Assembly: GCA_963765495.1 (NCBI GenBank)
Contig: CAVXWP010000007.1
Coordinates: forward strand, 1-64,000
Reading direction: 5' to 3'
Origin: Blastocatellia bacterium
GTDB taxonomy: Bacteria; Acidobacteriota; Blastocatellia; UBA7656
DNA: 64,000 nucleotides
How positions within the stretch are numbered: the stretch's first letter is position 1; the number at the start of each line of letters is the position of its first letter. The notes under the pieces were generated by a model. That model was not told where the DNA came from and made no database searches. It worked only from the letters and a program-made list of their open reading frames with translations. Made by a program: the position numbers and the translations under genes. Shown here in pieces: positions 4,776-56,162 of the stretch.

Positions 4776-4831
4776 ATGCTAAGCCTTCGTGCATAAGGAT
4801 GGCATAAAATCTTTATAAAGATTTCGTAAAG
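4776..4831 (-). promoter_or_regulatory. KdpE-type binding array (4 hexamers, 11-bp period) plus -10 TAGCAT for the APC permease
   Basis: Minus-strand TTTACG/TTTATA/TTTATG/CTTATG at exact 11-bp spacing (4825, 4814, 4803, 4792), then 10 nt to TAGCAT. The architecture is nearly identical at 13233-13287. Confidence 0.75.
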
Positions 4832-4951
4832 ATTAAGAGGTAAAAGCCGCAGAGTAAAGAGAGACAGCCAAGCCGGGACGTGGAGATGCGGAGAGGTGGG
4901 GATTGGGGTAATGTGCTTCGTGCAAAGATTCGCTATGTCGCCGTGTCTCTT

Positions 4952-7950: not shown

Positions 7951-8037
7951 GCAGCTCCATAACGATTGGCTCTTGTCGGGCGACAAGAACTGTAAGAGTC
8001 AAGCAGCGCCGGATAGAAGCAATGAAAGATGATTCTT

Positions 8038-8640
8038 TCACCTGTTGTTTGTCATGCCTTCTGTCCGGCCCCTCTTTCCCTCAATCTCATCAAGCGCGAG
8101 GTTCAATTCGAGCACGTTGACGCGCGGCTCGCCTAGTATCGCAAATGTCCTGCCTTCGGTATGCTCACGCACCAGCCGTCTCACCTCACCCTCTTCCATA
8201 CCTCGCGCTTTAGCCACTCGCGGCACTTGAAACTCTGCCGCCGCAGGTGAGATGTGCGGGTCAAGCCCTGATGCCGATGCGGTCACGAGATCAACCGGCA
8301 CGGGCGCGTTGGGGTTCTCTTTCTGCCTGTTTTCAGCCTCTCGCTTAACGCGCCCAATCAATCTATTACTCGTAGGGCCCAGATTTGACCCGCCCGATGC
8401 TCCCGCGTCATAACCTGTGCCTGCCGCAGAAGGGCGCGAGTGGAAATAGACTTCGGATGAAAAGGGCTGGCCGATGATGCGAGAGCCTATGACCACGCCA
8501 TCGCGTTTGATCAACTGCCCGTTGGCCTTTTCGGGGAAGATCGCCTGCGCAAGCCCTGTCACGATGAGCGGATAGACCAGCCCGAACAGAACAGTTGTCA
8601 CTATGATCATCAAAACAGATGTTACAAAGTTGTTCTTCAT
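8038..8640 (-). CDS. kdpC: K+-transporting ATPase subunit C
   Basis: 'YFHSRPSA', 'SGGSNLGP', '[15 protein letters not shown]', '[11 protein letters not shown]'. Confidence 0.97.
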
Positions 8641-8648
8641 CTTAACTC

Positions 8649-10700: not shown

Positions 10701-10708
10701 TTCTAACC

Positions 10709-12502
10709 TCAGAAAGTCTGTCCCGCCCCCATCAGCAGATGCTCAACAATAGGGCCAAGGCTCAGCACGGGAAAAAAGGTCAATGCGCCAACGATCAGGA
10801 TCACGCCAATCAACAACACGACAAACAACGGCGTAGTGACGGGGAACGTGCCGAGCGAAGGGGGCACTGCTTTTTTGGCCGCGAGACTGCCCGCAATCGC
10901 CATCATCGGAATAATCATGAAGTATCGCCCGAAGAGCATCGCCAATCCGTTGGTCGTATTGTAGAAGGGGGTATTGGCGTTGAGACCGGCGAAGGCCGAG
11001 CCGTTGTTTCCTGTCCCCGATGTGAAGGCGTAGAGAATCTCAGAGAGTCCGTGCGGCCCCAGATTGTTGCGCGATTGAAGGCCCATATTCGTGACGCTCG
11101 CCCAGGCTGTGAGTACCAGTATGAAGAATGCAAAGATCAGCACGTAGAGCATCGCCAGTTTTACCTCTTTCGCCTCGATCTTCTTGCCCAGATATTCCGG
11201 GGTGCGCCCTACCATCAGCCCTGCGATGAATACGGTCAGCACAACCATCACAAGCATGCCATATAACCCTGCGCCCACCCCGCCGAAGATGATTTCGCCA
11301 AGCAGTATGTCGAGCAACGGGATCATACCTCCGAGCGGCGTATACGAGTCGTGCATCGAGTTGACCGAGCCATTCGAGGCGTCGGTCGTCGCCACGGCCC
11401 AAAGCGTGGAATTCAAGATTCCATACCTCACTTCCTTGCCTTCCATGTTGCCGCCCGCTTGCTCGTGTCCAGCGGTCTCAACCGCTGCCTGCGTCACCCC
11501 ATACCGATTGAAGATGGGATTGCCGCGCGCTTCGTAGTAGTAGGTGACGAAGACACCTGCGAGAAACAGTATCGCCATCGCACAGAATACGGCCCAGCCA
11601 TGCCGCTGATTGCCGACCATTCGACCGAAGGTATACGTAAGACCCGAAGAAATAGCGAGGATAGCCAGCATTTCAAAGAAATTCGAGAGAGGCGTCGGGT
11701 TTTCAAAAGGGTGAGACGAGTTGACGTTGAAGAAACCTCCGCCGTTCGTGCCCAGTTGCTTGATGGCGATCTGAGAAGCGGCTGGTCCCTGCGCGATTGT
11801 CTGATCGGTTACTGTTTCCTTGACCTCATTTCCGGTCCCATAATCGGTTCTCGTGACCACTTGCGGTTCGACCAGTCGAGCATCCGTGTAAGGCTTGAAG
11901 TTTTGAACCACGCCCTGAGAGACCAGAAAGAGCGCCCCGATAAGCGAAAGCGGCAGCAAGACGTAAAGTGAGGCGCGCACCATGTCCACCCAGAAATTGC
12001 CTACCGTCTTTGCCTCGCGGCGGGCAATGCCGCGAACAAGAGCAATGGCCACGGCAATGCCGGTAGCGGCTGAAACGAAATTTTGCAATGTCAGCCCGGC
12101 CACCTGCGTAAAGTAGCTCATAGTCGTTTCGCCGCTGTAACCTTGCCAGTTCGTGTTGCTCGTAAAACTGATTGCTGTATTAAAGGACGAATCGGGGCTG
12201 ACGCCGGCCAGACCTTGCGGGTTGAACGGCAGGTAATATTGAAATCGCTGAAGACAATACAATACAAGCAAGCCGATAAGATTGAACATCAGCATGGCTG
12301 CCGTGTATGTAGTCCAGTGCTGCTCCTGACTTGCGTCCACACGGCAAAGGCGATAAATCAGCCGTTCTACCGGGCCAAGCACCCGATTCATGAAAGTCTT
12401 ATCCCCGGAGAAGACTCTGGCCATGTAGATGCCGAGCGGCCTGGTAATGGCGAGCAGCACCAGAAAGAAGACCATGAGTTGTAACAGTCCGTTGAGTGTC
12501 AT
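10709..12502 (-). CDS. kdpA: K+-transporting ATPase subunit A
   Basis: '[10 protein letters not shown]', '[11 protein letters not shown]', '[15 protein letters not shown]', 'NNGSAFAGL'. Start at ATG 12502 with a GGGGAG SD. Confidence 0.98.
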
Positions 12503-12591
12503 TTCATCTCCCCACGACAACAGTGACAAATGACGAGTAACAGAAGCAGGTTGCAAGCGCGGTTTTCTAACACTGTCACTCGTGACGTTAG

Positions 12592-12681
12592 CTAAAATTT
12601 CTCAGGCTTGAGCAGCCCGTATATGAGATATGCAAGCAAAAGCAGAACGATCAATCCGCTTATTATGTATTCGATGTTCAT
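12592..12681 (-). CDS. kdpF: KdpF small subunit (29 aa); possibly also made as a 60-aa two-TM form from ATG 12774
   Basis: MNIEYIISGLIVLLLLAYLIYGLLKPEKF matches the KdpF 'YL.Y.LL.PE.F' pattern; AAGGA SD; directly upstream of kdpA. Confidence 0.9.
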   Translation of the reverse strand: MNIEYIISGLIVLLLLAYLIYGLLKPEKF

Positions 12682-12786
12682 GACATCTTCCTTATTCTCT
12701 GCTTCCTTCCGAAAGGCTAAGAAATAGAGGCTCAGAGTAGATATGCCAACCATTATCCAACCGACGGTTTTCATGCTCGCTCCTGT

Positions 12787-12870
12787 TCAGACGCGCTCGC
12801 AAAAACGCACATACCAGAACGACAGGGCAAAGAAGGCGAAAACTACTGCAATGAAAATGATGTCTCTCAT
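12787..12870 (-). CDS. 27-aa hydrophobic peptide upstream of kdpF
   Basis: MRDIIFIAVVFAFFALSFWYVRFCERV, single TM, GGAG SD. It resembles the 'MxD...FF.....Y...C..L' peptides I recall preceding kdpF. Confidence 0.75.
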   Translation of the reverse strand: MRDIIFIAVVFAFFALSFWYVRFCERV

Positions 12871-13017
12871 TTCTACATCTCCATATCTATCTTTTCTGTT
12901 ATTTCCTTTAGCATCAGTGAACTCGCTTTCAGTTGAAATTGATCCCGATGGCTGTGTAGAAGAAATGATTGCCGCTCCTGGCCCCGGTATTATCGATAGA
13001 GTAGCCAATATAACCCG

Positions 13018-13179
13018 TCACTCGCGGGTGTGGCTTGAAGTTGAAGCCGGGCGTAAAGTATCCGCTCGCATGCTTGCGGGGTTTCTTCTTTTGTCGATAG
13101 TAAGGATGAAGTGACGCAACAACAATAATAAAACAGCCGCTACCATAGCGATGGCTATGGCCAATAAATCTCTGCCCAT
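13018..13179 (-). CDS. 53-aa single-TM small protein, first ORF of the kdp transcript
   Basis: MGRDLLAIAIAMVAAVLLLLLRHF..., strong SD (CAGGAGACTAAAATG), just downstream of the KdpE-box promoter. Confidence 0.6.
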   Translation of the reverse strand: MGRDLLAIAIAMVAAVLLLLLRHFILTIDKRRNPASMRADTLRPASTSSHTRE

Positions 13180-13232
13180 TTTAGTCTCCTGTGGCTTTAG
13201 CCGTTTCAATGTCTGGCTTCGGCCACATTTTT

Positions 13233-41485: not shown

Positions 41486-43213
41486 ATGCCTGACAACGCA
41501 AATCAATCTTCAGACGAAACGGTTTTGATACTGGGAGGGGCGGGTCTGGTCGGTATGCAGGTAGCCCATCAGGTGGCTCGCGATCTGCGCCCTCAGAAAG
41601 TGGTCATCGCCTCGCTCTATCATAAAGAGGTGCGAGAGATAGTCCACGAACTGAGAAAAGAGTTCCACGCCGTCGAGTTTGTAGAGCTTTGGGGCAACCT
41701 CTTTGTCAGAACCGAATTTGCCAGGGAGGACCGGGGCGAGTTGATCGCAAGCCCTGCCAGAAGGCGCGCTATTTACGAAGATTTGCTTGGACCGCTAAAT
41801 GATGCCTACGAGAAATCGATGCTCGTTGCCGCGATACGCCAGCATCGCCCCAACATCCTGATCGACTGCGTCAACACCGCTTCCGGCATCAGCTATCAGG
41901 ATGTTTACACCAACTCAATCGAGGCGCGAAAGGGACTCGACCTTATCGAAGAGTGCGTCAAAGACCGCGACTTCAAACAGATATGGGGCAATCGCAAATC
42001 GCTCGAACGCACCTTCGAAACCCTGCTTGTTGCGCAATCAATCCCACAACTGATCCGGCACACTCAGTTGCTCTATCGCGCTATGGTCGAAGCGGGCACG
42101 CGCATCTATGTCAAAGTAGGCACTACGGGCACGGGCGGCATGGGATTGAACATCCCTTACACTCACGGCGAAGACAAGCCCTCGCCTCAATTGATGTCGA
42201 AGACGGCTGTCGCCTTCGCTCATACGGGGCTGATGTTTTTGATGGCTCGCACACCCGACGGACCTATTGTGAAAGAGGTCAAACCCGGCGCGATGATCGG
42301 TTATAAGAAAGTCACATACCAGTCGCTCAAGAATCGCCGCGACAACTCTTCGGTTCCGATGTATGCGCCACGCTCTCAATCGCTCGACGGAGAGCTTGCG
42401 CTCGCGCTGCCTAAAGAGAGCTTCAATCGTCTGGGCGAGCTTGAGATGGTAGGCGTAGACACGGGCGAGAACGGCTTTTTCGCTCGCGGGGAATTTGAAG
42501 CCGTTACTTCCATCAACCAGATGGAGTTTGTGACCCCCGAAGAGATAGCCCGCAACGTGGTGCTTGAGATCAAGGGCAGCAACACCGGGGTTGATGTGAT
42601 CGCCGCCATCGACAGCGCCATCATGACGCCGAGCTATCGCGCAGGCTACCTGAGAGGTTCGGCCATTGAAGCCATGAGGCGGCTGGAACGCGAGACGGGT
42701 TCTCATTCGATAGCCACGGGCGAGCTTGGGCCGCCGAAGCTTACAAAGCTGCTTTATGAAACCCATCTGTTAAAGCAGAAGTACCACATGCTTCAGGCGG
42801 TCGTCGAACGCGACGCCGAAGAGATTTCACTTGCGCTCTGGCGCTACCTCCAGCGCAATCAGAATCTGCGAAATACAATCATCTCGATAGGCATTCCGAT
42901 ACTCCCGCCCGATGGTGTGCGATTGATTCGCGGGCCTCACATCAGAGTGCCCGAATACGCGGGCGAGCCTAAACTTGATGTCACCGCCCCGGCTATAGAA
43001 CAATGGGCCGAGCGCGGATGGATTGACCTGAGAGCCAAAAACATCGAACGCTGGCAGGACCGTTTCCGGCGAATGCTGCGCTCGGCGCAGATGATTCATC
43101 GCCAGGGCTCGGCCGGGATCACTATGGAAGCCTACCGCAGCGAAGATATAAGAATCGGCGAAGTGGTGGGCTGGATTTTCAACAACGAAGAAGAGGGTTA
43201 CAGGATCAAATGA
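41486..43213 (+). CDS. Uncharacterised Rossmann-fold (NAD(P)-binding, SDR-like) protein between pheS and pheT
   Basis: 575 aa; N-terminal '[10 protein letters not shown]', glycine-rich '[18 protein letters not shown]', 'DTGENG'. Its stop overlaps the pheT start (ATGA). Confidence 0.8.
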
Positions 43214-45258
43214 AGATCAGTTATAACTGGCTGGGTGAGCTTGTCACGCTCACGCTTAATCCGAAGGAACTGGCAGAAAGACTCACGATGGTGGGGCTTG
43301 CGGTCGAATCCGTAGAAAAGTTGGGCGCGGATCATATTCTCGATTTAGACCTGACCTCCAATCGCCCTGACGCGCTTTCGCATCTCGGCATCGCGCGCGA
43401 GGCGGCGCTTGTGTGCGGCACCGATTTGAAGCCTCTCAACTCGGCGATTACGGAAAGCGACGAAGAGAGCAGTGATGTCGCTTCTGTTGAGATACTCGAT
43501 ACGGACCTCTGCCCGCGATACACGGCGCGCATTATCCGGGGAGTCAAGGTAGGGCCTTCTCCGAAGTGGCTTGTCGAGCGTCTTGAATCAATCGGCCAGC
43601 GGTCGGTAAACAATATCGCGGATATAACCAACTATGTGATGTTCGAAATGGGGCAGCCCACGCACGCGTTTGATTTTAATCTGCTGAATGGCCGCCGCAT
43701 CGTCGTGCGCCGCGCTCGCGCGGGCGAACAACTCACTACGCTTGACGGGTTCACTCGCGAGTTGCGGCCTGAGATGCTTGTCATCGCAGATGGTGATCGC
43801 GCGGTTGCGATGGCGGGCATCATGGGCGGCGAAGCGACCGAGATCAGCGCCTCGACTACGGATGTGCTGCTTGAAAGCGCCTACTTCAATCCGAGGTCGG
43901 TCAGACAGACGGCACGCGCTCTGGGGCTCGACACCGAAGCCTCTTACAGATTCGAGCGTGGAGCCGACTTTGAAGCTCAGGCGCGGGCTGCCGATCGCGT
44001 AGCTCAGTTGATAGCCGAGATTGCCGGAGGCCGGATACTAAAAAGCATCATAGACGTTTATCCGGCGAAGATCATGCGCGACCCTGTGGCTTTGCGAGAG
44101 TCGCGCATCAAGCGGCTTACGGGGCTTACGGTTGACATCGGGAAAGCCGCCCACATTTTGCGCGGGCTTGAATTTGAAGTCGAGCTTCTGGCCGACAAAA
44201 AAGAACTGCTTGCGATGCCGCCCTCATTTCGCATAGACATATTCCGCGAGGAAGATCTTGTAGAGGAGGTCGCCCGCCATGTGGGTTACGATCTGATAGA
44301 CGTGACCTTGCCCGCGTGGAGCGGGCAGGGCAGCTATCTGCCCGGGGATGCCAGCCGCCGAAAGGTTCGCCGGGCGCTTGCAGGGCTGGGTTTCGATGAG
44401 GCAATCTCTTTCAGCTTTGTAAATCCCGCGCACGACCGTATCTTCAGCGGCGAAGATAAATCGGCTCTCACGCTCGCAAATCCGATTGACGTGAGCGAAG
44501 ATGAGATGCGAGGCTCCATCATCACGGGACTGGTCGAAGCTTTGCAGGCGAATTTCAATCAGGGCCGCCGCGATGTGAGGCTGTTTGAACTGGGCCGCGT
44601 CTTTCGCGCGACGAAGGAGGGAGAGCGCCCGCTTGAGCGCGAGCGGCTGGCCCTGATTATGTCGGGCGCAATTCAGCCTGATGATTGGCGGGGCGCGCGG
44701 CAGGTCGATTTTTATGATCTGAAAGGCGCGATTGAAACCATTTTAGGAACTCTTAACATATCAGGCTTTACAATTGAGCGAGCCGGTGTAGAATACCTGC
44801 ATCCCGGACAGTCGGCGGTGCTTCAAAGGGACGGCGAGGAAGTAGCGAGGTTTGGCCGCCTGCATCCGCGAGTGGCCGCGCTTTACAAGTTCCGGCAGCC
44901 TGTCTATGTCGCAGAGATCGAGTTAGAGATGCTGCTCGAACTTTCGCCCGATCAGGTCCGCTACAGCGCGTTGCCCCGGCTTCCATCCGCCTCGCGCGAT
45001 GTCTCGGCGCTTGTGTCTGAAACAACCTCGTGGGGCGATATTGAACGGGTCATAGGCGAACTCGGCATCAGCGAAATCGTTTCGGTCAAGCTCTTCGACA
45101 TGTACAGAGGCAAGGGGATGGAAGAGGGCGTTCGCTCGCTTGCCTTCCGCGTGACCTATCGAGGAGTAGGCCGCACGCTCACGGATGAAGATGTTTCCAG
45201 CATGCACGAGCGGGTGACCGAGACGTTGCGAAATCGCTTTGGCGCTCAACTTCGCTAA
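43210..45258 (+). CDS. pheT: Phenylalanine--tRNA ligase beta subunit (short form without the B2 OB-fold)
   Basis: 'MKISYNWL', '[16 protein letters not shown]', 'ASYRFERG', '[10 protein letters not shown]', FDX-ACB '[17 protein letters not shown]'. Confidence 0.97.
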
Positions 45259-46209: not shown

Positions 46210-49200
46210 TCACGTCCTTTTCATTTCAACTCCGTCTTCGCTTTGCGAGTTCACCGTGCTCGTCTTCCTGCGAAGCGTAAAGAGTGTCTCTCCCGTCGGG
46301 CGTTTGTGCCAGCCGACATCGGCTTCGATCAGACTTGCGCGCGAGCGGATGTTACTCAAACCCCGTCCGGTGAGCGTGGCATTGCTCGACGGGACGAAAC
46401 CACCCCCGTCGTCCTCAAGCTCAAGCAGGAAATCGCCTTCCGGTTCGATTGCGATCCGAAGCCGAACACGCCTCGCGCTTGAATGACGGCAGATGTTGCT
46501 CACCGCTTCCTGCACTATGCGATAGATTTGAATCTGGACAGCCGGGGTGATTTTCAATCTCTCTTCCAGATTATCTTCCGAGGTGAATTCATAATCGAAC
46601 TGTCGCTCGACCGGCAGATGAGCCACCGCGTCTGCGAGCGCCCATTCGAGCGCCGCCGCAAGCCCCACGTTTGCAAGCACGGAAGGGCTCAGGTCTTCGC
46701 ATATACGGCGAATTTCGTTGGAAATGGATTGTATCTCGCCCCGGAACTCTGCCGGGGTGATCTGTTTATGACCGTTTGTGGATTTGCCTGCGGGCAATTC
46801 GTCCGTGAGCAGGAGCAATCGGCGAAGGTCCGCAAGCGTCTGGTCGTGGAGGTCGCGGGCTATGCGGCGGCGTTCGGTTTCGGTCTCCGTAGCCAGTTGC
46901 ATGCGAGTCCGTCCAAGCTGGCTGTTTGCCACGGCGAGCGCGTCGTTTGTTCTGGCAAGCCTTCTATTCTGTCGCGACCCCCACCAGACGGCTATCAGTG
47001 CCAGGGTGAGCAACACCGAAAGCGCCATCGTGGTCCAGGGAAAGGGCGCGCTTGCTACCGTGAATTCGAGCATTAGCGGCTCGCTCGCTACAAGATCGCT
47101 GGTGTAGGCGTGGGCCATGATTTTATAGCGACCGGGGCGCAGATTTTCCACGAGCATTTGGGAGTCGCGCGCGAGCTTTTGCCTTATCAATTTCCCGCTG
47201 GCATCAAGCAGCGAAAACGAATACTGAAACTGCTCGGGAAAGGTCCGACTGCTTGTCGCCGCCACATCAATCGCAAGGCTGTTTTGCGGGTATTCCAGAC
47301 TCAGCCCCTCGCGTATCTCTTCGGGCTGATATACGCGCTTGCCCATCACGCGAGTTATCTTGAGCGGCGGAGCCGCTTGCCCGGGTTCGTATCTCACAAC
47401 GCCCCGGCTCGTGGCTATCCATAATGTCCGGCCGTGCGGCTGACGGGGCGCGGTCAGCACGGCGAACACGTTTTCGGAAGGAAGCCCCTGTTCCCCGTCC
47501 ATCTGCGCGATGACCTGGTTGCCCTGTTTATCAATCAACACGCGAAACAATCCGCCGCCCACCGAGGCGCACCAGAGCGATGCTTTATCATCATCATCAA
47601 GGGCGAGGCTTCTAATGTCGTTCGATTCGATGACGGCGCTCAACTCTCCCGCTTTCAAAGCGTAAAGCCCCCGCGATGTGCCAAGCCACAAATAATCATC
47701 GCTCTTGCCTTCGATTGCCCAGACCGTGTTGCCTTTGAGTTGATCGAAGGCGGGCGCGGGCTGCACCTGTCGGCCGTCGAATAGAAAGAGGCCCGCTTCG
47801 GCAGTGCTTATCCAGAGCCTCGCAGGTCCATCGGCGTGCAGGGCGACTACCCGACGCTCTCTCTCGTCGTCGTCGTCCGGCGGCCATACAAGGGCACGGT
47901 TCGATCCATCTATGCGCTCAAGCCCGTGCCCGAAACTCGCGATATAGGTCACGCCCTGAAAAATGCAAACGGCTCGAACGCTGTCGCCTCCAGAAGCGAC
48001 GGGTGGATTTGATTCGACACGTTCGAAGGCGCGTTTGTCTGTAGCAATGATCGAATCAGCAAGCTCTGAAAGGCGGGTGTTTCGTTTTTCATATGAATGG
48101 TTGGTAACATAGAGTCCCCACGCGGTCCCTACGAGCAGGCGGCCTTCCAGGTCTTCGCCTATCGAATGTATGACCTTATCTTGAAAGGCTTCGACAGGGT
48201 TCCACGGCGAGGAGGGATTGCTCTTAACAAACAGCCCGGAACTGGTGCCGCACCACATGGCCCCGTCTGATGATTGAAACAGGGCGCGAGCGAAATTGCT
48301 TTTCGCAGAGATGCCCGGAAGCTCCACGCGCAGGCCGTGAGGGTCGTACCGGCAGACGCCCCCGTCCGTGCCGAACCAGACTACATCTTCACGGTCAACG
48401 AAGACGGTGTAGACGTGATTCGAGCGCATCCCGCCAGCCGTGTTCTCGAATGTAAAATGTTCGAGCCTGTCGAGTGAGACCGAGTTTTGCTGTCGCCGGT
48501 CTTGCTGATAATAGAAGGCCCCGTCCTCATCCGTGCCTATCCACATACGGCCCGTGGAGTCAAACTTAATCGCCGTGATGGTGCCGGTGTCGGTGCCCAT
48601 CTTTTCAGGGCGGGCAAGGTTGCCGCTTTCAAAGAGGCCGCTGTCTCTGGCCGTCGTCTGGGCGCCAAACCACATTCGCCCGTGCGGATCGACCTCGATT
48701 GCCTCTACGAAAAAGGCGCGCGGGTGGCTCAGGATTTCTTTCACCTCGCCTCGTTCGATTGCGAGCAATCCCCGGCTGCGTGTGCCTGCAATCAGAGTCT
48801 CGCCAATCAAGGCAAGGCTCGTGAGGGGAAGCGGTCGGCCGCCGCCTGAATCAATTCTCAAAAGCGAATGATCTTTTGGCTCGATGGTCTGAACCGCGAG
48901 GGTGCCATCCGCGATTGTCGAGCAATCAAAGATCACGCCTTCGCGGCTTGCCATCACTGCGCGCCCTTCGGCGGGAGTGATGATCGAGGTCACGGCCTTG
49001 CCCGATGTTTCGGGGATCAACTCAAATCGCTCATCGATCAATCGAGCCGCGCCCGAGTCGGTTCCTATCCAGAGCACTCCATCGGGTGCGAACCGAAGCG
49101 CGAGCACGCGATTTGCGGCAGGCCCTTCTGCCGCGATTTTTTGAATGCGGCGACCATCGTAACGCGCAAGCCCGCTGTCGGTCCCAAACCACATCACCCC

Positions 49201-49398
49201 GTCGCGGTCCTCGGCTATGGCTCGCACGTGATTTGAAGGAAGCCCGTGAAAGAGCGTGATCGCGCCCCAGGCGTGCGGGTTGACAGACGGCGCGGGGAGA
49301 GAGTCGCCTTCGGGTTCAGCAAATGAAATCGCCGCCCCGGCGAGCAATAGAAAGAGAGCAAGAAGAAGATAATAACGATGGCGCATGGGTTGTAGCAT
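46210..49398 (-). CDS. Sensor histidine kinase with periplasmic beta-propeller (Reg_prop/Y_Y_Y) and HisKA_3
   Basis: Repeated 'D.DG.MWFGT..GL' blades, 'GLPSNHV', one TM, 'ERRRIARDLHD', 'QEAVSNICRH', 'DDGGGF', 'GRGLSNIRSRA'. Confidence 0.92.
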   Translation of the reverse strand: MLQPMRHRYYLLLALFLLLAGAAISFAEPEGDSLPAPSVNPHAWGAITLFHGLPSNHVRAIAEDRDGVMWFGTDSGLARYDGRRIQKIAAEGPAANRVLALRFAPDGVLWIGTDSGAARLIDERFELIPETSGKAVTSIITPAEGRAVMASREGVIFDCSTIADGTLAVQTIEPKDHSLLRIDSGGGRPLPLTSLALIGETLIAGTRSRGLLAIERGEVKEILSHPRAFFVEAIEVDPHGRMWFGAQTTARDSGLFESGNLARPEKMGTDTGTITAIKFDSTGRMWIGTDEDGAFYYQQDRRQQNSVSLDRLEHFTFENTAGGMRSNHVYTVFVDREDVVWFGTDGGVCRYDPHGLRVELPGISAKSNFARALFQSSDGAMWCGTSSGLFVKSNPSSPWNPVEAFQDKVIHSIGEDLEGRLLVGTAWGLYVTNHSYEKRNTRLSELADSIIATDKRAFERVESNPPVASGGDSVRAVCIFQGVTYIASFGHGLERIDGSNRALVWPPDDDDERERRVVALHADGPARLWISTAEAGLFLFDGRQVQPAPAFDQLKGNTVWAIEGKSDDYLWLGTSRGLYALKAGELSAVIESNDIRSLALDDDDKASLWCASVGGGLFRVLIDKQGNQVIAQMDGEQGLPSENVFAVLTAPRQPHGRTLWIATSRGVVRYEPGQAAPPLKITRVMGKRVYQPEEIREGLSLEYPQNSLAIDVAATSSRTFPEQFQYSFSLLDASGKLIRQKLARDSQMLVENLRPGRYKIMAHAYTSDLVASEPLMLEFTVASAPFPWTTMALSVLLTLALIAVWWGSRQNRRLARTNDALAVANSQLGRTRMQLATETETERRRIARDLHDQTLADLRRLLLLTDELPAGKSTNGHKQITPAEFRGEIQSISNEIRRICEDLSPSVLANVGLAAALEWALADAVAHLPVERQFDYEFTSEDNLEERLKITPAVQIQIYRIVQEAVSNICRHSSARRVRLRIAIEPEGDFLLELEDDGGGFVPSSNATLTGRGLSNIRSRASLIEADVGWHKRPTGETLFTLRRKTSTVNSQSEDGVEMKRT

Positions 49399-49414
49399 TT
49401 AAATCATGCATCAA

Positions 49415-49538
49415 GTGATGCGTGATGCGTGATGCGTGATGCGTGATTTTCTGGTTGTTGAACCTTTACCAGCCACTTGCTCAACTTCCGGGTCACGTAT
49501 CACGGATCACGCATCACAAATCACAAATCACAAATCAC
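49415..49538. repeat. Heptamer-arm palindromic element, core type 2
   Basis: (gtgatgc)x4-5 + the core shared with 41367-41471 + tcacgca/tcacaaa units. Confidence 0.85.
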
Positions 49539-50302
49539 CGTGTTGGCCGAGCCGTTCGTTCCTGCGTGTATCGCGCGCGGTCTCGCTCGATCCAGCTTTC
49601 AAGGTCGTGGGCGGCCTTCTCCAGTTCATCGCTGTTGAGCAGGCCGCGCCGCAATGCTTCAAAGAAGGCCCGCGTTCGCACATTGTATGCGAGCTTGTCG
49701 TATGTTTCGTGCGAGGTGCCTTCCGAGGAGGCCGCAAAGAGTTTTTCATACAGGGTCGCAAGGCGGCTCTCGACTCCACGGAGGCTCAAGCTGCATTTGC
49801 GAGCTATAGCCCAGTTCGAAAGACCGAGGGCGAGGTAATAAAGCGCCTCGGCTTCGAACTCGGTCAGCAGGGGTCGCTTGAAGGAATCCTTAAAAGCCGG
49901 GTCTATCATATCCGCGCCGTCTTCGAGTACGGCGGCGATAAAGCGCAGAAATCGCGTTTCAGGATTGTTCTTATCTATGAATCCGTATGCGGGCGGCGGC
50001 TCGACCGATTTGATGATCTTGCGAATTTCGTTGATGTAAATCTCGTGCGGGAACTGAGTCCAGAAAATAATCCTGGCTCTGGGAAATCCGCGCCAGATGG
50101 CGCGCGCGGCCTTCACCCCCGAGAGCCTGGGCATCTGAATGTCCAGCACGCAAAGCTCGGGGCGATGCTCAAGCGCAAGCTCGATAGTAGCTTCGCCGTC
50201 CGAGGCTTCGATCACCGGCAGGTGTGCGTGAAATTCTCTCTCAAGAAGCTCGCGCAGGTAAGTGCGTTGCGCCACGTTGTCTTCGGCTATCAGAATAGAC
50301 AT
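49535..50302 (-). CDS. NarL/LuxR-like response regulator
   Basis: REC 'IAEDN', 'LDIQMP', then HTH 'LTEFEAEALYYLALGLSNWAIA'; adjacent to the HisKA_3 kinase. Confidence 0.88.
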   Translation of the reverse strand: MSILIAEDNVAQRTYLRELLEREFHAHLPVIEASDGEATIELALEHRPELCVLDIQMPRLSGVKAARAIWRGFPRARIIFWTQFPHEIYINEIRKIIKSVEPPPAYGFIDKNNPETRFLRFIAAVLEDGADMIDPAFKDSFKRPLLTEFEAEALYYLALGLSNWAIARKCSLSLRGVESRLATLYEKLFAASSEGTSHETYDKLAYNVRTRAFFEALRRGLLNSDELEKAAHDLESWIERDRARYTQERTARPTR

Positions 50303-50574: not shown

Positions 50575-51855
50575 ATGACCATCATCGCGCGTAAGCGCGA
50601 TCCGGGCAGTGACAAGCCCTGCCACTACAGAGAATCAGAATTCAGAAATATAGTAGCCCTTGCTGTGCTCGTTGCGCTCCTGGTTTTACCTCGCGCCACA
50701 TCGGCCGCCGAGTTTGCCGATGTGGCTATTGAGGCAAAAGACGGGCGCGCTATGGAGTGGTTTTATGAGTCGCTCAGGCGAACCGAAGCGAGAGAATCCA
50801 TCACTCGAATTCTGCATTACGGAGACTCGCACATAGCCGCAGATATTCTGACGGGCGCTCTTAGACAGAGATTTCAGCGAGGCTTCGGAGACGCGGGGCT
50901 CGGATTTGTGCTTGCGGGAAAGCCCTGGCAGTGGTACTGGCGCAAAGGGCTTTCGAGCTATTCGAGCAAAGGCTGGCGCGTAGACGGGCTCTCTCAGGCT
51001 TCGCTTGCCACAGACAACCGGCTGGGACTTGCGGGCGTGAGCCTGAGCGCGTACCGCGCGGGCGAATGGGTTTGCCTGGAAGCTGCGGGCGCAAGATTTG
51101 ACCTCTACCTTATGAAGCAAGCGGGCGGCGGCACGGTTGATGTGCTGCTCGACGGCGCTCTCTATCATCACGGCCTGTCGCTTTTATCAAGCAAACCGGA
51201 ACCTCTCTATCTTGAAGTGGCGGCAGGCTACGACGGCTCTCATACGATAGAGCTTCGCGTAGCCTCGACGGGGTGGGTGCGCATATTCGGAGTGGTTGCC
51301 GAGCGCGACCGGCCGGGCGTCGTCTATGATGCGTTGGGCATCAACGGCGCTCGCGCCGACCGCCCCTTGATGTGGGACCGACGTATCCTCAAAGACAACA
51401 TCGAAAGACGTGACCCCGATCTGATTGTGATCTCGTACGGCTCAAACGAGGTAGGCGATGCGGACCTCGATCTGGCCGAGTACGGCAAATCATTTTCAGC
51501 TCTGCTCACAAGACTGCACACGGCAGCCCCTCGCGCCTCGCTCCTGGTGATCAGCCCGCCCGACCGAGCCACGCGCGCAGGCGCGAGGTGGCAAACCATA
51601 AACCGAATGTCCTTGCTTGTCGAGACTCAGCGGCAGGCGGCATTCCGATCAGGCGCGGCCTTCTGGGACCTGTTTCACGCGATGGGCGGAGCCGGTTCAA
51701 TCGAGCGATGGGCGACCTTGCCAGCGCCGCTCGCCCAGACGGACCGCGTGCACCTTACTGCTACCGGGTATCGACTGGTAGCCGAAAATCTCTACAGGCA
51801 ACTGATGCTCGCTTATCTGTGGACGGTCATCGAAGAGGAGCTGGGCGAAAGATAA
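50575..51855 (+). CDS. SGNH/GDSL acyltransferase (PatB/AlgJ-like) 1
   Basis: 'HYGDSH', 'GINGA', 'YGSNE', 'DRVH'; hydrophobic N-terminal segment. Start uncertain. Confidence 0.85.
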   Translation: MTIIARKRDPGSDKPCHYRESEFRNIVALAVLVALLVLPRATSAAEFADVAIEAKDGRAMEWFYESLRRTEARESITRILHYGDSHIAADILTGALRQRFQRGFGDAGLGFVLAGKPWQWYWRKGLSSYSSKGWRVDGLSQASLATDNRLGLAGVSLSAYRAGEWVCLEAAGARFDLYLMKQAGGGTVDVLLDGALYHHGLSLLSSKPEPLYLEVAAGYDGSHTIELRVASTGWVRIFGVVAERDRPGVVYDALGINGARADRPLMWDRRILKDNIERRDPDLIVISYGSNEVGDADLDLAEYGKSFSALLTRLHTAAPRASLLVISPPDRATRAGARWQTINRMSLLVETQRQAAFRSGAAFWDLFHAMGGAGSIERWATLPAPLAQTDRVHLTATGYRLVAENLYRQLMLAYLWTVIEEELGER

Positions 51856-53282
51856 TGTTTTTCACAAGCGGCACATACTATGTTTTTCTGGTTGCGGTCT
51901 TTTTCGCCTACTGGACGGTGGCGAAAAAGAGTGGCTTGCGGACCCTGTTTCTGGCCGCCGCGAGTTGTTTCTTCTACGCGAATATCGGCGGGCGGGCTCT
52001 GTTGTTGCTTATAGCGGTCTCGATGGTTGACTTCACAACCACTCGAATGATGAGCCGGGATTGCTCTCGATTGAGGCGCAGGCTGCTTTTGAGCGCATCG
52101 CTTGTTGTGGACATCGGTTCGCTGTGTGTCTTTAAGTATGCCGATTTTTTCATGGAATCTGTCGCGGGCGGGCTTTCGAGTTTCGGACTGGCAATCGAGC
52201 TTCCGCACCTGAATATGCTGGCCCCGATAGGCATTTCATTCTTCATATTTCAATCGCTTTCTTCGGTGATAGACGTTTATCGGAAAGATGCGGAACCGGC
52301 TCCGACCTATCTCGATTACCTTGCCTTTGTCTCGTTCTTTCCTACGATCATCGCGGGGCCTATCCTGCGCGCAAAGCAATTGCTGCCTCAGCTTAGAAAT
52401 CATCTCGCGCTTGATGCGAGCACGGGTGGGCAGGCGCTTTTTCTGATAGCGGTCGGACTCATAAAGAAGATCGCCATGGCCGATTACCTGAGCGCGAATC
52501 TGGTAGACCGGGTCTTCGATTTTCCCGAGCGATTTTCATCTCTCGAAGTCCTGGCGGCCGTTTACGGCTACGCGCTGCAAATCTACGCCGACTTTTCCGG
52601 CTACAGCGACATCGCCATAGGCTCGGCTATGTTGCTTGGCCTCACATTGCCCGTCAATTTCAACGCGCCTTACAGGGCGAGGGACTTGCCGGATTTCTGG
52701 CGGCGCTGGCACATAACGCTTTCCACGTGGCTGCGCGATTATGTCTTTTTCAGCGTAGTAGGTCGTCGGGTTCGCTCTTCGGCAATGCTCTATTGCGGTC
52801 TTGTCGTGACTATGGTTGTCGGCGGGTTGTGGCACGGTCCTACGTGGACGTTCGTGTTGTGGGGGCTGGCGCATGGATTGGGCCTTGCGGCGGTCAGGGC
52901 AATTGCCGCCCTGCGAAAGCGGTTCTCTATACCCCGGCGCAATAACCTCTGGGCCGACTGTTTGAGCGTCATAATCACGTTTCATTTTATCTGTTTTACG
53001 TGGGTGCTGTTTCGAGCCGACAGCCTCGACGCGGCCCTCAAGCTCTTCCGGCAACTGTGTATGCTTACCACAGACACGGCGAATCTTGCCCTGCCTGTTG
53101 GCGTACTGATTGCGCTTGGATTTATTGCTCACTGGCTGCCGGACCGCATCTGGGAGAGGGCCAGCGCGGGGTTTGCGCGATTGCCTTCGCCTGCTCAGGC
53201 GGGCGCATTGTTCCTTCTGGCCATCGGGCTTTATTCGGTCGCGAGCAGCGATGTGGTTCCGTTTATCTATTCCAGGTTTTGA
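51855..53282 (+). CDS. MBOAT O-acyltransferase (AlgI/PatA/DltB type)
   Basis: 'PIGISFFIFQ', 'IAGPI', 'YADFSGYSDIAIG', 'FWRRWHITLS.WLRDY', 'GLWHG', C-terminal 'PFIYSRF'. ATG overlaps the upstream TAA. Confidence 0.95.
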   Translation: MFFTSGTYYVFLVAVFFAYWTVAKKSGLRTLFLAAASCFFYANIGGRALLLLIAVSMVDFTTTRMMSRDCSRLRRRLLLSASLVVDIGSLCVFKYADFFMESVAGGLSSFGLAIELPHLNMLAPIGISFFIFQSLSSVIDVYRKDAEPAPTYLDYLAFVSFFPTIIAGPILRAKQLLPQLRNHLALDASTGGQALFLIAVGLIKKIAMADYLSANLVDRVFDFPERFSSLEVLAAVYGYALQIYADFSGYSDIAIGSAMLLGLTLPVNFNAPYRARDLPDFWRRWHITLSTWLRDYVFFSVVGRRVRSSAMLYCGLVVTMVVGGLWHGPTWTFVLWGLAHGLGLAAVRAIAALRKRFSIPRRNNLWADCLSVIITFHFICFTWVLFRADSLDAALKLFRQLCMLTTDTANLALPVGVLIALGFIAHWLPDRIWERASAGFARLPSPAQAGALFLLAIGLYSVASSDVVPFIYSRF

Positions 53283-53286
53283 CATT

Positions 53287-54720
53287 ATGTTTCGATACAA
53301 GAACGACAGCGAAGCAAACGCGCTTGCGGGAAAGACCTCTCGCACGCTCGTCAGCCTTGTGGCGCTGGCGATGTTGCCCTATCTGATCCCGGCCTTGAGC
53401 GGTTATCGCCTGCTAAGCTCTTCGGGGGCGAGCGGTTTGATGACCATTCCCACAGGAGAAGCCGCGATGTCGGATGTTTCGGCGGGGCAGGGCAGGGCCG
53501 TATCATCCGAATCGGATTTGCCCGGCGGCAAGGCGGAGGCTACGCCGGGCGAGGTCGAAGATCCCTCGGGGCGGGCGCTCGATAATTATTTCGCTTCGTT
53601 GCTCAAGGTTGAGCGCGAAGGAGGCCATTCGCGTGTCTGTCATTACGGCGATTCGCCAATAACTAACGACGGCATAACCTCTACCGTGAGGCGGCGGCTG
53701 CAACTCAGATTTGGCGACGCGGGCCACGGATTTATCCTGACTGCAAGGCCCTGGGGCTGGTACGCGCATACGGGTGTCTCTCACGATGAGAGCCGGGGAT
53801 GGTCGGATGACCCTATGGCGATTTCGCGCGGCGATCACATCTACGGTCTCGGATGCGTGAGCTTCACTAATTCGGCGGCGGGCGAGTGGGCGAGCTTTTC
53901 TACTACGGAGGAAGGCGAAGTCGGCCATAGCGTCTCGGCATTCGACATTTACTATCTGGCGCAACCGGGCGGAGGCGATTTCGATGTGGAGGTTGATGGA
54001 GCGACCGAAGGGCGAGTTGCGACCGCAAGCGATGAGGTGAAATCGGGGTTCTATCGCGTAGAGGTGAAAGAGGGCGGGCACAGCCTGGTCTTGAGAGTTG
54101 TTGGCAACGGCGAGGTGCGAGTCTTTGGCGTGGTGCTTGAAAGCGGAGCGCGGGGCGTGGAGTACGATTCGCTTGGTGTCAACGGCGCTTATATCGGATT
54201 GCTCGCCAATTATCTTGATGTCAATCACTGGGCCGAGCAGTTGCGACATCGCAAGCCCGATCTTGTCATCATCGGTTACGGCACAAACGAGAGCCAGTTT
54301 GAGCGCCTGCCGATGGATCAGTATGAGCGAGACACCAGAGAGGCGATACGTCGAATCAGAGCGGCGCTGCCGGGCGTTTCGATAATGCTTGTCGGGCCTA
54401 TGGACCGGGCCATGAGAGGCGCGGGCGGAACACTTGTGACGCGGCCTATGATCCCGAAATTGATCAGTTATCAAAGACGCATCGCATCTGATACGGGTTG
54501 CGCTTTTTTCGACACATACACGGCGATGGGCGGCGAAGGCACGGCGGCCAGATGGTGTCTCGCGCGGCCACGTTTGATGGGCGGCGACTATACACATCCT
54601 ACCGCTCAGGGAGCCGAAATCGTAGGCACGCTCATCTATGACGCAATGATGAGAGCTTATGAGAAGTATAAAGACCGAGAGACAGAAACGGCGCTCAATC
54701 TGAGCCGCGCCGGGCAGTAG
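53287..54720 (+). CDS. SGNH/GDSL acyltransferase (PatB/AlgJ-like) 2
   Basis: N-terminal TM, 'HYGDSP', 'GVNGA', 'YGTNE', 'DYTHP'. ATG 53287. Confidence 0.87.
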   Translation: MFRYKNDSEANALAGKTSRTLVSLVALAMLPYLIPALSGYRLLSSSGASGLMTIPTGEAAMSDVSAGQGRAVSSESDLPGGKAEATPGEVEDPSGRALDNYFASLLKVEREGGHSRVCHYGDSPITNDGITSTVRRRLQLRFGDAGHGFILTARPWGWYAHTGVSHDESRGWSDDPMAISRGDHIYGLGCVSFTNSAAGEWASFSTTEEGEVGHSVSAFDIYYLAQPGGGDFDVEVDGATEGRVATASDEVKSGFYRVEVKEGGHSLVLRVVGNGEVRVFGVVLESGARGVEYDSLGVNGAYIGLLANYLDVNHWAEQLRHRKPDLVIIGYGTNESQFERLPMDQYERDTREAIRRIRAALPGVSIMLVGPMDRAMRGAGGTLVTRPMIPKLISYQRRIASDTGCAFFDTYTAMGGEGTAARWCLARPRLMGGDYTHPTAQGAEIVGTLIYDAMMRAYEKYKDRETETALNLSRAGQ

Positions 54721-54792
54721 ACAGGTGTTGTTGCGAGACTTCGTTTCTCGCAAAGACGCGAAGACGCAAAGTACGCAAAGGAGATTATTGAT

Positions 54793-55029
54793 ATGTTACC
54801 GGAAAACGTAATGACTTTCTTAAATCGCGCGGCAGAGGAGGCGCGAACTCAATTGCCCCCCCGCGACTCATCGCTATTTCTGGCAGGTGTGCTCGATTCA
54901 TTTGCGCTGGTAGATTTTGTGACCATGCTTGAGGGCGAGTGCGGCATCTCGATAAGTGACGCCGACCTCAGACCCGAAACCTTCGACACCATCGCAAAGA
55001 TAGAGACTTATATCGAAAGTAGGCAGTAA
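54793..55029 (+). CDS. Acyl carrier protein (DltC-like, stand-alone)
   Basis: 78 aa, acidic, phosphopantetheine motif 'GVLDSFALV', 'PETFDTIAKI'; AAGGAG SD. Confidence 0.88.
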   Translation: MLPENVMTFLNRAAEEARTQLPPRDSSLFLAGVLDSFALVDFVTMLEGECGISISDADLRPETFDTIAKIETYIESRQ

Positions 55030-55117
55030 GCCGTAGGCAGTTGATACGGAACCGACGGCTACTGCTAAAGAGAGCATGAGGATGCATATGAACAGGTGGT
55101 ACCTAACTGCCTACTGC
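55019..55117. repeat. Heptamer-arm palindrome (GTAGGCA / TGCCTAC units)
   Basis: gtaggcagtaagccgtaggcagt ... aactgcctactgc. Confidence 0.6.
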
Positions 55118-55127
55118 TTAATGAATT

Positions 55128-56162
55128 ATGAAAAGCTATATCACAGGTTATGGTAGCGCGCTGCCCCGGCGGGTGGTGACAAATGCCGAGCTTGCGCCAA
55201 TGCTCGGGGTTGATCCGGGCTGGATCGAAGCCGGTTCCGGGATACGCGAGCGGCGATGGGTTGAGGCCGACCAGTCATGTTCGGACCTTGCGGCCACGGC
55301 CGTAAGTGAGGCGCTCAAAGATGCCCGGGTGAGCGCCGACTGTGTTGATTATTTGATAGGTTGTACGCTCTCTCCAGATTATCAGGTGCCGGGAATCGCG
55401 CCCCTCGTTCAACGCAGGCTTGATGGGTTCGGGCAAATCCCGGCTATTGATCTGCGGGCGGGATGCGCGGGTATTCTCTACAGCCTGCAAATGGCGAGAG
55501 GGCTTATCGAGTCGCGTGCGGCAAACAGGGTTGTCTGTTTCGGCGCTGAGGCGCAATCGAAAGGGCTCGACCTGCGCCCGCAAAGCGCCGAATTGAGCAT
55601 GCTGTTTGGGGATGGCGCTGGCGCTCTTGTTGTGAGTCGAGAGGCGCAAACTGCCGCGCACTATTTCACGCTCTCGATTGATGATGTGCTTATCTTAACC
55701 GACGGGAATTTCGCCGAAGACCTTGTGGTGAAAGCGCCGGGCACGGCCAATGGAGCGCGGTGGTTTGACCCCGCGCAGGCCACATCGGATCTGTATCGGC
55801 CTTCTATGAATGGCCGCAATGTGATTTTGCATGCTGTGCGAAAACTCGCCGAAGCCGCCGCGCAGATAATTGCGCGCAATGAAATCTCGATGGATCAAAT
55901 AGACCTGATCGTTCCGCATCAGGCCAATGCCAACCTGTTGCGGTCGCTCGGCAAGAAGCTGAATTTTTCGGAAGACCGCATAGTGGTCAACGTAGACCGC
56001 TTCGGCAACACAAGCGGCGCTTCCGCCTTTCTCGCGTTGTGGCAAGCCTCGCGCGAACGGAAACTGCGCCCCGGCAACCGCGTTCTCTTACTGGCTTTCG
56101 GCGCGGGTTTCACCTGGGGCGCAGCTATTTGCACCGTCTGCGATGCGGGACGTGATGCGTGA
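55128..56162 (+). CDS. 3-oxoacyl-ACP synthase III (FabH/KAS III) family protein
   Basis: Cys-His-Asn triad 'AGCAG', 'PHQAN', 'GNTSGAS'; also 'FGDGAGA' and 'FGAGFTWG'. Confidence 0.92.
   Translation: MKSYITGYGSALPRRVVTNAELAPMLGVDPGWIEAGSGIRERRWVEADQSCSDLAATAVSEALKDARVSADCVDYLIGCTLSPDYQVPGIAPLVQRRLDGFGQIPAIDLRAGCAGILYSLQMARGLIESRAANRVVCFGAEAQSKGLDLRPQSAELSMLFGDGAGALVVSREAQTAAHYFTLSIDDVLILTDGNFAEDLVVKAPGTANGARWFDPAQATSDLYRPSMNGRNVILHAVRKLAEAAAQIIARNEISMDQIDLIVPHQANANLLRSLGKKLNFSEDRIVVNVDRFGNTSGASAFLALWQASRERKLRPGNRVLLLAFGAGFTWGAAICTVCDAGRDA

Follow-up and report, generated by a model that had tools for sequence, protein, structure and literature searches.

How does an envelope O-acylation machine obtain its acyl groups when a carrier protein and a FabH-derived enzyme are encoded beside it? 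The question is raised by a five-gene module in a 64,000-nucleotide stretch of DNA (hereafter the window; positions 1 to 64,000 of contig CAVXWP010000007.1, assembly GCA_963765495.1) from a Blastocatellia bacterium of the phylum Acidobacteriota. The module occupies window positions 50575-56162, and its genes, all in the same direction on the + strand, encode an SGNH-fold protein (SGNH1), a membrane-bound O-acyltransferase (MBOAT), a second SGNH protein (SGNH2), an acyl carrier protein (ACP) and a KAS III enzyme. Because both SGNH proteins belong by homology to the Ape1 family, the SGNH-MBOAT-SGNH core appears to be of the known Pat/Ape ("OAP") cluster type and is not new. What appears to be new is the donor side, that is, a carrier and a KAS III enzyme joined to a Pat/Ape cluster. 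A preliminary description of this DNA had called the combination uncharacterised; this holds for the carrier/KAS III addition, of which our literature search, with subscription journals outside its reach, found no description, but not for the core. We found that the ACP and KAS III genes form a tight pair that is linked to one clade of MBOATs. The most probable reading, which we hold with moderate confidence, is that of a peptidoglycan-type Pat/Ape O-acylation module whose donor is a private carrier protein and not free acyl-CoA. The five genes are as follows.

50575-51855, + strand: SGNH1, 426 aa from the ATG at 50575; Pfam Lipase_GDSL_2
51855-53282, + strand: MBOAT of the PatA/AlgI/DltB type, 475 aa; Pfam MBOAT
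53287-54720, + strand: SGNH2, 477 aa; Pfam Lipase_GDSL_2
54793-55029, + strand: carrier protein (ACP), DltC-like, 78 aa; PP-binding
55128-56162, + strand: KAS III, FabH-derived, 344 aa; ACP_syn_III and ACP_syn_III_C, PRK09352

Linkage of the ACP-KAS III pair to the core

The open reading frames and our reading of the sequence confirmed the layout given in the preliminary description. The five genes are co-oriented, SGNH1 and MBOAT overlap by one base in the sequence TAATG at 51853-51857, and the MBOAT frame ends in F-I-Y-S-R-F-TGA, followed by a 4-nt gap (CATT) and the SGNH2 start codon at 53287. Gaps of 72 nt and 98 nt lie 5' of the ACP and KAS III genes, respectively, and an AAGGAG ribosome-binding site precedes the carrier gene. 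A consensus scan, which is weak evidence and uninformative for this phylum, found no terminator-like sites in the 72-nt or 98-nt gap and no convincing promoter in the locus. Gene content, protein families and catalytic residues, as described below, are directly established. Its recurrence in metagenomes and in further genomes puts the five-gene arrangement far beyond chance.

The carrier was used to search 301 Acidobacteriota genomes, the window's own included (two of them, G024 and G049, are marked unpublished). A KAS III gene adjoins 11/11 of the best ACP matches (E <= 4e-10), and neither KAS III nor SGNH adjoins any of the next 19, weaker matches (0/19). Ten genomes besides the window's own carry the pair. 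The co-occurrence that the preliminary description had proposed to look for was found in these genomes: KAS III is adjacent to ACP in 10/10, an MBOAT gene lies within ~6 kb in 10/10, and an Ape-like SGNH gene is present in 9/10. A scan with an MBOAT alignment, using one genome per species, yielded at least 80 loci from many phyla, with no Blastocatellia among the matches listed. Three of 80 loci, all from Acidobacteriota, carry ACP and KAS III, and the ACP hidden Markov model detected no ACP in the other 77 except for one weak match (both among the matches listed). These three loci and the 10 other acidobacterial genomes make up the 13 genome loci referred to below. Three gene orders occur among the 13: SGNH1-MBOAT-SGNH2-ACP-KAS, MBOAT-SGNH2-SGNH1-ACP-KAS, and a convergent arrangement in which SGNH1-SGNH1-MBOAT-SGNH2 faces KAS-ACP. 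The linkage spans all three orders and two classes. The MBOAT is likewise missing from five ACP-negative Blastocatellia genomes, which are 99-100% complete and two of which belong to the same family. The module appears to be ancient and stably inherited in Acidobacteriota.

Metagenomes gave a similar picture. A scan with a 7-row ACP alignment returned at least 601 stretches and at least 537 confirmed relatives, and 79 loci were kept. Among the matches listed, KAS III lies directly downstream of ACP in 60/62 loci, an SGNH gene lies directly upstream of ACP in 43/56, and an MBOAT gene is found in 13/16 of the loci with 5 kb of upstream flank. The preliminary description had named missing synteny of ACP and KAS III in relatives as the outcome that would speak against it; the acidobacterial and metagenome counts clearly point the other way.

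The linked MBOATs are also related to one another. In a tree of 76 rows, 25/25 MBOATs linked to ACP and KAS III fall within one group of 29, which has an SH-aLRT support of 99 from a quick tree search. The remaining four members are three cut contigs and locus L154, in which ACP is kept and KAS III is absent. The sister lineages of the group are carrier-less clusters from Myxococcota and Pseudomonadota.

Some individual loci show other arrangements; of those named here, L138, L153, L154, L157, L187, L188 and L196 come from metagenomes. Locus L154 has the order MBOAT-SGNH2-SGNH1-ACP (ACP at 7605-7841), with no KAS III in the 3.7 kb downstream, and L138 has two ACP copies (422-652 and 1649-1885) with no KAS III within 1.6 kb. 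In the Terriglobia genome locus L018, a phage-integrase-family gene (11574-12689, - strand) separates ACP and KAS III, which are 2 kb apart. A small GT2 glycosyltransferase gene follows ACP-KAS III in L153 (2250-2975) and L157 (2422-3162), in place of SGNH genes before the pair. In L187 and L188 the pair lies directly downstream of pheS-pheT, and in L196 it follows pheS-pheT and a GDP-mannose dehydratase gene; no SGNH or MBOAT gene is in view in any of the three. The window itself has pheT (43210-45258) ~5 kb upstream of the module, and the pheS-pheT context may reflect where the pair lay ancestrally. Locus L124 (G263:C294:19900-39899) carries the pair in a polysaccharide-type locus with genes for a CBS-nucleotidyltransferase, a hexapeptide transferase and a UDP-GlcNAc 2-epimerase; its MBOAT gene is more distant and there is no Ape-like SGNH gene. 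The donor pair of L124 may serve a second MBOAT system.

The surroundings of the module vary. No flanking gene that could serve as a clue to the target is conserved across the 13 loci, and the pair has no further biosynthetic gene as a regular companion there. We found no glycosyltransferase or export genes flanking the window module or 12/13 of the related loci, and no AMP-binding domain in the five genes, their neighbors or the regions around the 13 related genome loci. In the window, opposite-strand genes for a LuxR-type response regulator and a large propeller histidine kinase lie upstream of the module and are divergent from it (46210-50302, - strand; the sensor kinase has 1062 aa, Reg_prop repeats and HisKA_3), and hpt lies downstream. 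A HisKA_3 kinase and a LuxR regulator are likewise close by in the related locus L123. The host genome comprises 7.3 Mb in 17 contigs and is 97.9% complete. One sequencing run, of soil-metagenome DNA, is listed as containing the stretch, and no RNA run is.

The SGNH-MBOAT-SGNH core

Both SGNH proteins score well above the Pfam Lipase_GDSL_2 cut-off of 32.9 bits (58 and 63 bits). The GDS...DxxH residues of both proteins and the FIYSRF end of the MBOAT, pointed out in the preliminary description, are present, and the catalytic residues are invariant among orthologues. For SGNH1 these are S85, D390 and H393, and G83-D84-S85-H86 and D390..H393 are unchanged in 13/13 aligned orthologues; for SGNH2 they are S123, D434 and H437, with G121-D122-S123 and D434..H437 unchanged in 12/12. 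Family profiles of SGNH1 and SGNH2 match PDB entry 4k3u over their whole length (E 1e-56 and 6.6e-30, respectively), and in both cases 8gld and 8gkd are the next matches. Entries 8gkd and 8gld hold Campylobacter jejuni Ape1, a peptidoglycan O-acetylesterase, and 4k3u is entitled "Peptidoglycan O-acetylesterase in action". The AlphaFold model of SGNH1 (pLDDT 85.4, pTM 0.85) contains an SGNH core with a beta-sandwich domain inserted after the GDS strand, and an N-terminal transmembrane helix is predicted at residues 20-37. The top Foldseek matches of this model are again the Ape1 entries 8gkd, 4k3u and 8gld (E 4e-26 to 2.5e-25; target-normalized TM-score, TMt, 0.77-0.84), and the next fold class reaches a TMt of at most 0.39 at comparable alignment lengths. 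An accessory domain inserted inside the SGNH domain is described for NmApe1 in the available excerpt of a review (PMC9487903; the other papers cited here by PMC number are also drawn on in excerpt). Together, these matches suggest that SGNH1 and SGNH2 are full-length relatives of the Ape1 family, predicted to be membrane-anchored, with SGNH1 predicted to be extracytoplasmic.

A search of the host genome showed that SGNH1 and SGNH2 are each other's sole relatives within it. In a FastTree analysis, the SGNH1-type and SGNH2-type lineages each include members from Myxococcota or Pseudomonadota, and the duplication therefore seems to predate the acidobacterial clade, making SGNH2 an old paralogue of SGNH1 as far as the tree indicates. 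The two paralogues probably have distinct jobs.

The MBOAT scores 98 bits against its Pfam model (cut-off 27). Residues H286, H327, F470 and Y472 are invariant in 22/22 aligned MBOATs, and the protein ends in the hexapeptide F470-I-Y472-S-R-F475 (Y472 codon, 53268-53270). In PatA, the Tyr of the same hexapeptide is auto-acetylated and the acetyl group is then passed to PatB, and in Dlt systems the motif is carried by DltX (PMC12148441). We found no second MBOAT in the host genome. A 994-aa MBOAT-SGNH2 fusion in locus L121 (11679-14663, - strand) was rejected as a candidate: its junction is rich in Arg, Pro and Ser, it has no F-x-Y-x-x-F motif, and it looks like a frameshift or assembly error.

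OAP clusters, as Weadge et al. 2005 (PMC1199599) defined them, combine a pat MBOAT gene with paired ape genes, ape1b-ape1c-pat being one of the orders described, and the ape1b/ape1c form as presented there likewise lacks ape2. Clusters of this type, with PatA, PatB/Ape2 and Ape1 as products, serve both O-acetylation and de-O-acetylation of peptidoglycan, and the ape1b-ape1c-pat form is that of Bacteroides and others. The window module shares with these clusters an MBOAT with the conserved His residues and a fused C-terminal F-x-Y-x-x-F acyl-Tyr shuttle (PMC12148441), two periplasmic Ape-family SGNH paralogues with a beta-sandwich after the GDS block, and a compact, self-contained organization (PMC1199599). 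It differs in adding a DltC-like carrier and a KAS III-like enzyme, whereas PatA, as described in PMC12148441, takes acetyl-CoA directly with no carrier. It also differs in having no PatB/DUF459-type protein above the cut-off: SGNH1 scores 16.1 bits against PF04311 (cut-off 27.2), SGNH2 has no match to that model, and NgPatB is not among the PDB matches of either SGNH profile at E <= 1. Nor does the module resemble the alginate and cellulose systems (AlgI/J/F/X, WssF-I) in its setting, as it has no ALGX-type match and lies outside any polysaccharide synthase operon. Ape-like SGNH genes adjoin the MBOAT gene in 36/80 loci of the MBOAT scan, from many phyla, among the matches listed. Because the core is OAP-type by its Ape1 homology, peptidoglycan is the likeliest target polymer. 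The preliminary description had proposed acylation of an unspecified surface glycan; the acylation core stands, and the target can be narrowed, since the Ape1-family SGNH proteins point to peptidoglycan.

The proposed donor side: carrier, KAS III enzyme and MBOAT signature

The carrier scores 29.5 bits against PP-binding (Pfam cut-off 20.8), and its phosphopantetheine site is S36 (codon 54898-54900), within a D35-S36-F37 motif that is invariant in the family. Its best NCBIfam model is DltC PRK05087, at 32 bits against a cut-off of 68; another DltC model gave 17.6 bits against a cut-off of 52.35. The best PDB matches of the carrier family profile are the D-alanyl carrier proteins 8jf2_F and 6bug_A (E 3e-12, 49.7 bits), and the ACP entry 1l0i, which we take to be E. 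coli AcpP, scores 22.7 bits. Entries 6bug and 8jf2 contain the MBOAT DltB besides the DltC carrier. From these scores the carrier would be DltC-like, closer to a DltB-docking carrier than to a fatty-acid ACP, but not a DltC equivalog. A look-up of the carrier in the ESM Atlas returned only generic "acyl carrier protein" clusters, and complex prediction for the MBOAT and the carrier gave no answer (ipSAE 0.02 and 0.03), speaking neither for nor against binding.

DltC-like carriers occur elsewhere with other partners. Using the ACP profile, we found them in 28/301 sampled Bacteroidota genomes (loci L224-L250 and L218). Within 1.5 kb of these 28 carriers there is an AMP-binding ligase gene in 13 cases, an asparagine-synthase-like (AsnB-like) gene in nine and DltD in one, with no KAS III, MBOAT or Ape-like gene in that range. 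Because 0/28 of the Bacteroidota carriers have a KAS III gene nearby, the FabH-type partner is special to the acidobacterial clade. One of the 28, from the Bacteroidales genome G301 (locus L221, G301:C1:1837000-1856900), belongs to a Dlt-like set within a capsule-type locus (2969-13230, - strand) in the order Wza, Wzc, DltC-like carrier, asparagine-synthase-like protein, NAD-synthase-like protein, AMP-binding ligase, a 265-aa unknown protein and MBOAT. Its carrier has 82 aa (E 4.7e-11 against the ACP profile), and the set looks like a system for carrier-dependent (amino)acylation of the capsule.

Dlt systems (DltA, DltC, DltB, DltX and DltD) D-alanylate teichoic acids, and the window module resembles them in encoding a small DltC-like carrier together with an MBOAT and an SGNH-fold transferase predicted to work outside the cytoplasm. 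The scheme would be shared too: in Dlt, charging of the carrier takes place in the cytoplasm, after which a Tyr and then a Ser hand the acyl group on to the polymer (PMC12148441), and we propose such a relay here. The differences are equally plain. The module has no adenylating DltA and a FabH-type enzyme in its place, and the preliminary description of KAS III as the replacement for DltA is a fair one, because no adenylating enzyme is found in the module. DltX is also missing, the Tyr motif being fused to the MBOAT, and the SGNH proteins are of the Ape1 type with no match to DltD (PF04914). The MBOAT itself scores 204.6 bits against the DltB equivalog model TIGR04091, under its cut-off of 375; its profile matches the DltB structures 8jem and 6bug (E 1.5e-50), DltB being the only solved relative.

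The KAS III protein matches ACP_syn_III_C (104 bits) and ACP_syn_III (63 bits) in Pfam. Against the PRK09352 FabH subfamily it scores 276.5 bits, over the cut-off of 249, and against TIGR00747 it scores 261.2 bits, under the cut-off of 292.1. A second KAS III gene in the host genome (C9:741063-742064) reaches 419 and 375 bits on the same two models, and because of these higher scores it is the likelier housekeeping FabH, leaving the window enzyme as a separate, dedicated paralogue. The best PDB matches of the window enzyme are PqsD (3h76) and a KAS III "protein 2" entry (4wzu), with E 8e-54. It has the Cys-His-Asn triad C113, H264 and N294. Across its family the nucleophile is Ser in 75/78 members, a count that is biased in that the metagenome loci were recruited with a mostly Terriglobia-type ACP alignment; Cys occurs only in the window enzyme and its two Blastocatellia relatives. 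The His is conserved in 70/70 and the Asn in 69/69, and a further Asn is found in 69/70 at the position of FabH Arg249, which we take to be the ACP-docking Arg249 of the E. coli enzyme. A profile of the Ser-type family aligns to a genuine FabH (2ebd) at E 1e-85 with no indels. A nucleophile position occupied by Ser or Cys in every member speaks for a covalent acyl-enzyme. With His and Asn both invariant, decarboxylative chemistry is also possible, and the Ser-dominated nucleophile pattern favors acyl loading over condensation or decarboxylation.

Two described systems offer comparisons. In the viosamine island of Pseudomonas syringae pv. tabaci (acp; vioS, encoding KAS III; vioR, encoding a ketoreductase), a private ACP and KAS III are likewise found among glycan-decoration genes, which is a precedent that supports our model (PMC3927599). 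There, a soluble transferase in the cytoplasm attaches 3-hydroxybutyryl to the amino group of a nucleotide sugar, with the help of the ketoreductase (PMC3927599), whereas the window module has no reductase, has a DltC-like carrier and is predicted to export through the MBOAT. The enzymes ChlB3, CerJ and DpsC of natural-product pathways have the FabH fold and move acyl groups to or from a carrier, in place of condensation or in addition to it, and DpsC does so with a Ser nucleophile (PMC9573744). In these acyltransferase-type enzymes the Asn of the triad is altered (Cys-His-Asp in ChlB3 and CerJ, Ser-His-His in DpsC; PMC9573744), whereas the window KAS III family keeps both His and Asn.

The MBOAT may carry a trace of a possible change in donor. 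Carrier-less relatives have the motif IPLGGN after W-L-R/K-D-Y-L-Y (I in 92%, G in 100% and N in 88%; n=25). The linked clade lacks IPLGGN, which its carrier-less relatives keep, and 90% of its members have Pro at the Gly position (n=29). In a HMMER alignment DltB likewise lacks the motif. We regard the loss of IPLGGN as a lead toward a donor switch, short of proof.

Proposed pathway and rival explanations

In the pathway that we favor, the FabH-derived enzyme would act in the cytoplasm, where its C113 (Ser in most relatives) would accept a short acyl group donated by a CoA thioester and transfer it to the phosphopantetheine attached to carrier residue S36. The acyl-carrier would then dock with the MBOAT from the cytoplasmic side, in the way that DltC docks with DltB. 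Using H327, the MBOAT would move the acyl group across the membrane onto its own Y472 in the FIYSRF tail, as in PatA. One of the Ape1-like SGNH proteins would take the group onto its catalytic Ser and esterify the polymer, most likely at O-6 of N-acetylmuramic acid, and the other paralogue would either share in the esterification or remove the ester as Ape1 does. Each transfer step, the nature of the acyl group and the polymer that receives it are what we infer from the residues and homologies described above.

Regarding the chemistry of the KAS III step, loading by transacylation is our leading candidate, held tentatively. True condensation to a 3-oxoacyl-carrier is less likely, decarboxylation of malonyl-carrier to acetyl-carrier is slightly less likely again, and some other chemistry comes last. 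Loading, condensation and decarboxylation are ranked in this order because the nucleophile is always Ser or Cys and the His and Asn are invariant. The preliminary description had the KAS III enzyme either building or loading the acyl group; loading holds up, but the building of a 3-oxo group is less secure, because the nucleophile is Ser in nearly all members.

Several observations weigh against the favored pathway. The pair is not always beside an MBOAT gene: among the matches listed, 13/56 metagenome pairs lack an upstream SGNH gene and include pairs after pheS-pheT, pairs before a GT2 gene and pairs with an LssY_C gene upstream, though the contigs without an upstream SGNH gene are short. 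Genome G256 (98% complete) has an acidobacterial-type SGNH1-SGNH1-MBOAT-SGNH2 core with no KAS III of this family, only a 235-bit match at the FabH level and weak ACP matches, the nearer of which is 43 kb off; because G256 has the core only, the core may be able to work without the pair. Acetyl-CoA is the direct donor for PatA-type MBOATs that share the fused tail of the window protein, and the MBOAT/SGNH pathways other than Dlt are said to be carrier-free in the excerpted text of PMC12148441. The retained His and Asn of the KAS III family, unlike the altered triads of ChlB3, CerJ and DpsC, would weaken the case for a pure loader. The Ser:Cys count carries the recruitment bias described above. 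Finally, the peptidoglycan target is predicted from homology to Ape1, and a lytic-transglycosylase-type neighbor is present in only 3/13 loci.

Some of these observations would be expected if the core were an ordinary acetyl-CoA-dependent OAP cluster and the ACP-KAS III pair a mere neighbor serving a lipid, a polyketide-like product or another glycan decoration. The acetyl-CoA-using PatA has the same fused FIYSRF-type tail (PMC12148441), G256 retains the core without the pair, metagenome pairs turn up beside pheT, GT2 or LssY_C genes, and the pair of L124 lies in a polysaccharide-type locus with a distant MBOAT gene and no Ape-like SGNH gene. We nevertheless consider this explanation unlikely. 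The linkage is maintained in two classes and through three gene orders, all linked MBOATs group in one clade, which specifically lacks IPLGGN, and the pair and the MBOAT are co-present or co-absent in close relatives. Moreover, the carrier resembles DltC and not the ACP of fatty-acid synthesis, and the pair is accompanied by no other biosynthetic gene in the 13 genome loci. A different question is whether the same mechanism serves a target other than peptidoglycan, such as an exopolysaccharide, a capsule or lipopolysaccharide. MBOAT/SGNH pairs are known to acylate alginate and cellulose as well (PMC12148441, PMC9487903), the flanks are not conserved and include no consistently linked peptidoglycan gene in the 13 loci, SGNH1 falls below the PatB (DUF459) cut-off, and L124 and some metagenome pairs lie beside sugar-nucleotide or glycosyltransferase genes. 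Yet both SGNH proteins match Ape1 over the full length, including the inserted domain, and far above other solved SGNH structures, and the module is self-contained and outside a polysaccharide locus in 12/13 genome loci, which fits a housekeeping polymer. O-acetylated peptidoglycan was also found in representative Ape-encoding bacteria (Weadge et al. 2005, PMC1199599). A target of this other kind is doubtful in our view, although it is the most credible of the alternatives considered here.

The two remaining explanations concern the KAS III enzyme. It could be a true condensing enzyme that joins an acyl-CoA to malonyl-carrier, yielding a 3-oxoacyl-carrier (for example, acetoacetyl) and an exported 3-oxoacyl ester. 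The complete Cys-His-Asn triad of the window enzyme, the conservation of His and Asn across the family and the indel-free alignment of the Ser-type profile to 2ebd are consistent with condensation, and in the viosamine island an ACP, a KAS III and a ketoreductase do provide a 3-hydroxybutyryl decoration (PMC3927599). Against this, an oxyester acyl-enzyme of the kind that Ser would form is a poorer Claisen partner, the module has no ketoreductase, dehydratase or malonyl transferase, and the DltC-like carrier would need to be malonylated by FabD, so we regard it as unlikely, on a par with the ordinary acetyl-CoA-dependent cluster. The enzyme could instead be a KSQ-like decarboxylase: FabD would malonylate the carrier, KAS III would convert it to acetyl-carrier, and plain acetyl would be exported. 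In its favor, the family keeps His and Asn without exception but varies between Ser and Cys at the nucleophile. The C112S variant of E. coli FabH reportedly keeps malonyl-ACP decarboxylation and loses transacylation, which also counts in favor of a decarboxylase. This would, however, be a roundabout path to an acetyl group that is already at hand as acetyl-CoA. Residues other than Ser and Cys would be tolerated at the nucleophile position of a pure decarboxylase, yet 78/78 members have one of these two, and the 13 genome loci show no linked malonyl transferase. We judge decarboxylation to be the least probable of the four alternatives.

On the favored reading of a carrier-fed Pat/Ape module, the product may not be an acetyl ester. 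It is possible, though we would not put it higher than that, that a non-acetyl ester (3-oxoacyl, propionyl or butyryl-type) on acidobacterial peptidoglycan or another envelope glycan is made or selected by the FabH-derived Ser/Cys enzyme on the DltC-like carrier and exported via the PatA-type MBOAT. Two donor routes are described for bacterial MBOAT/SGNH polymer acylation, namely the direct use of acyl-CoA by Pat, Alg and Wss systems and the Dlt carrier charged by an adenylating enzyme. If the favored pathway is correct, a PatA/Ape-type machine fed by a FabH-charged, DltC-like carrier would constitute a third donor route and the first carrier-protein-dependent Pat/Ape system. The loss of IPLGGN would then be a natural experiment on donor switching in MBOATs, and the Ser-type FabH would represent a new function for the FabH fold. 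For an abundant soil phylum, the module would mean a possible new cell-wall ester.

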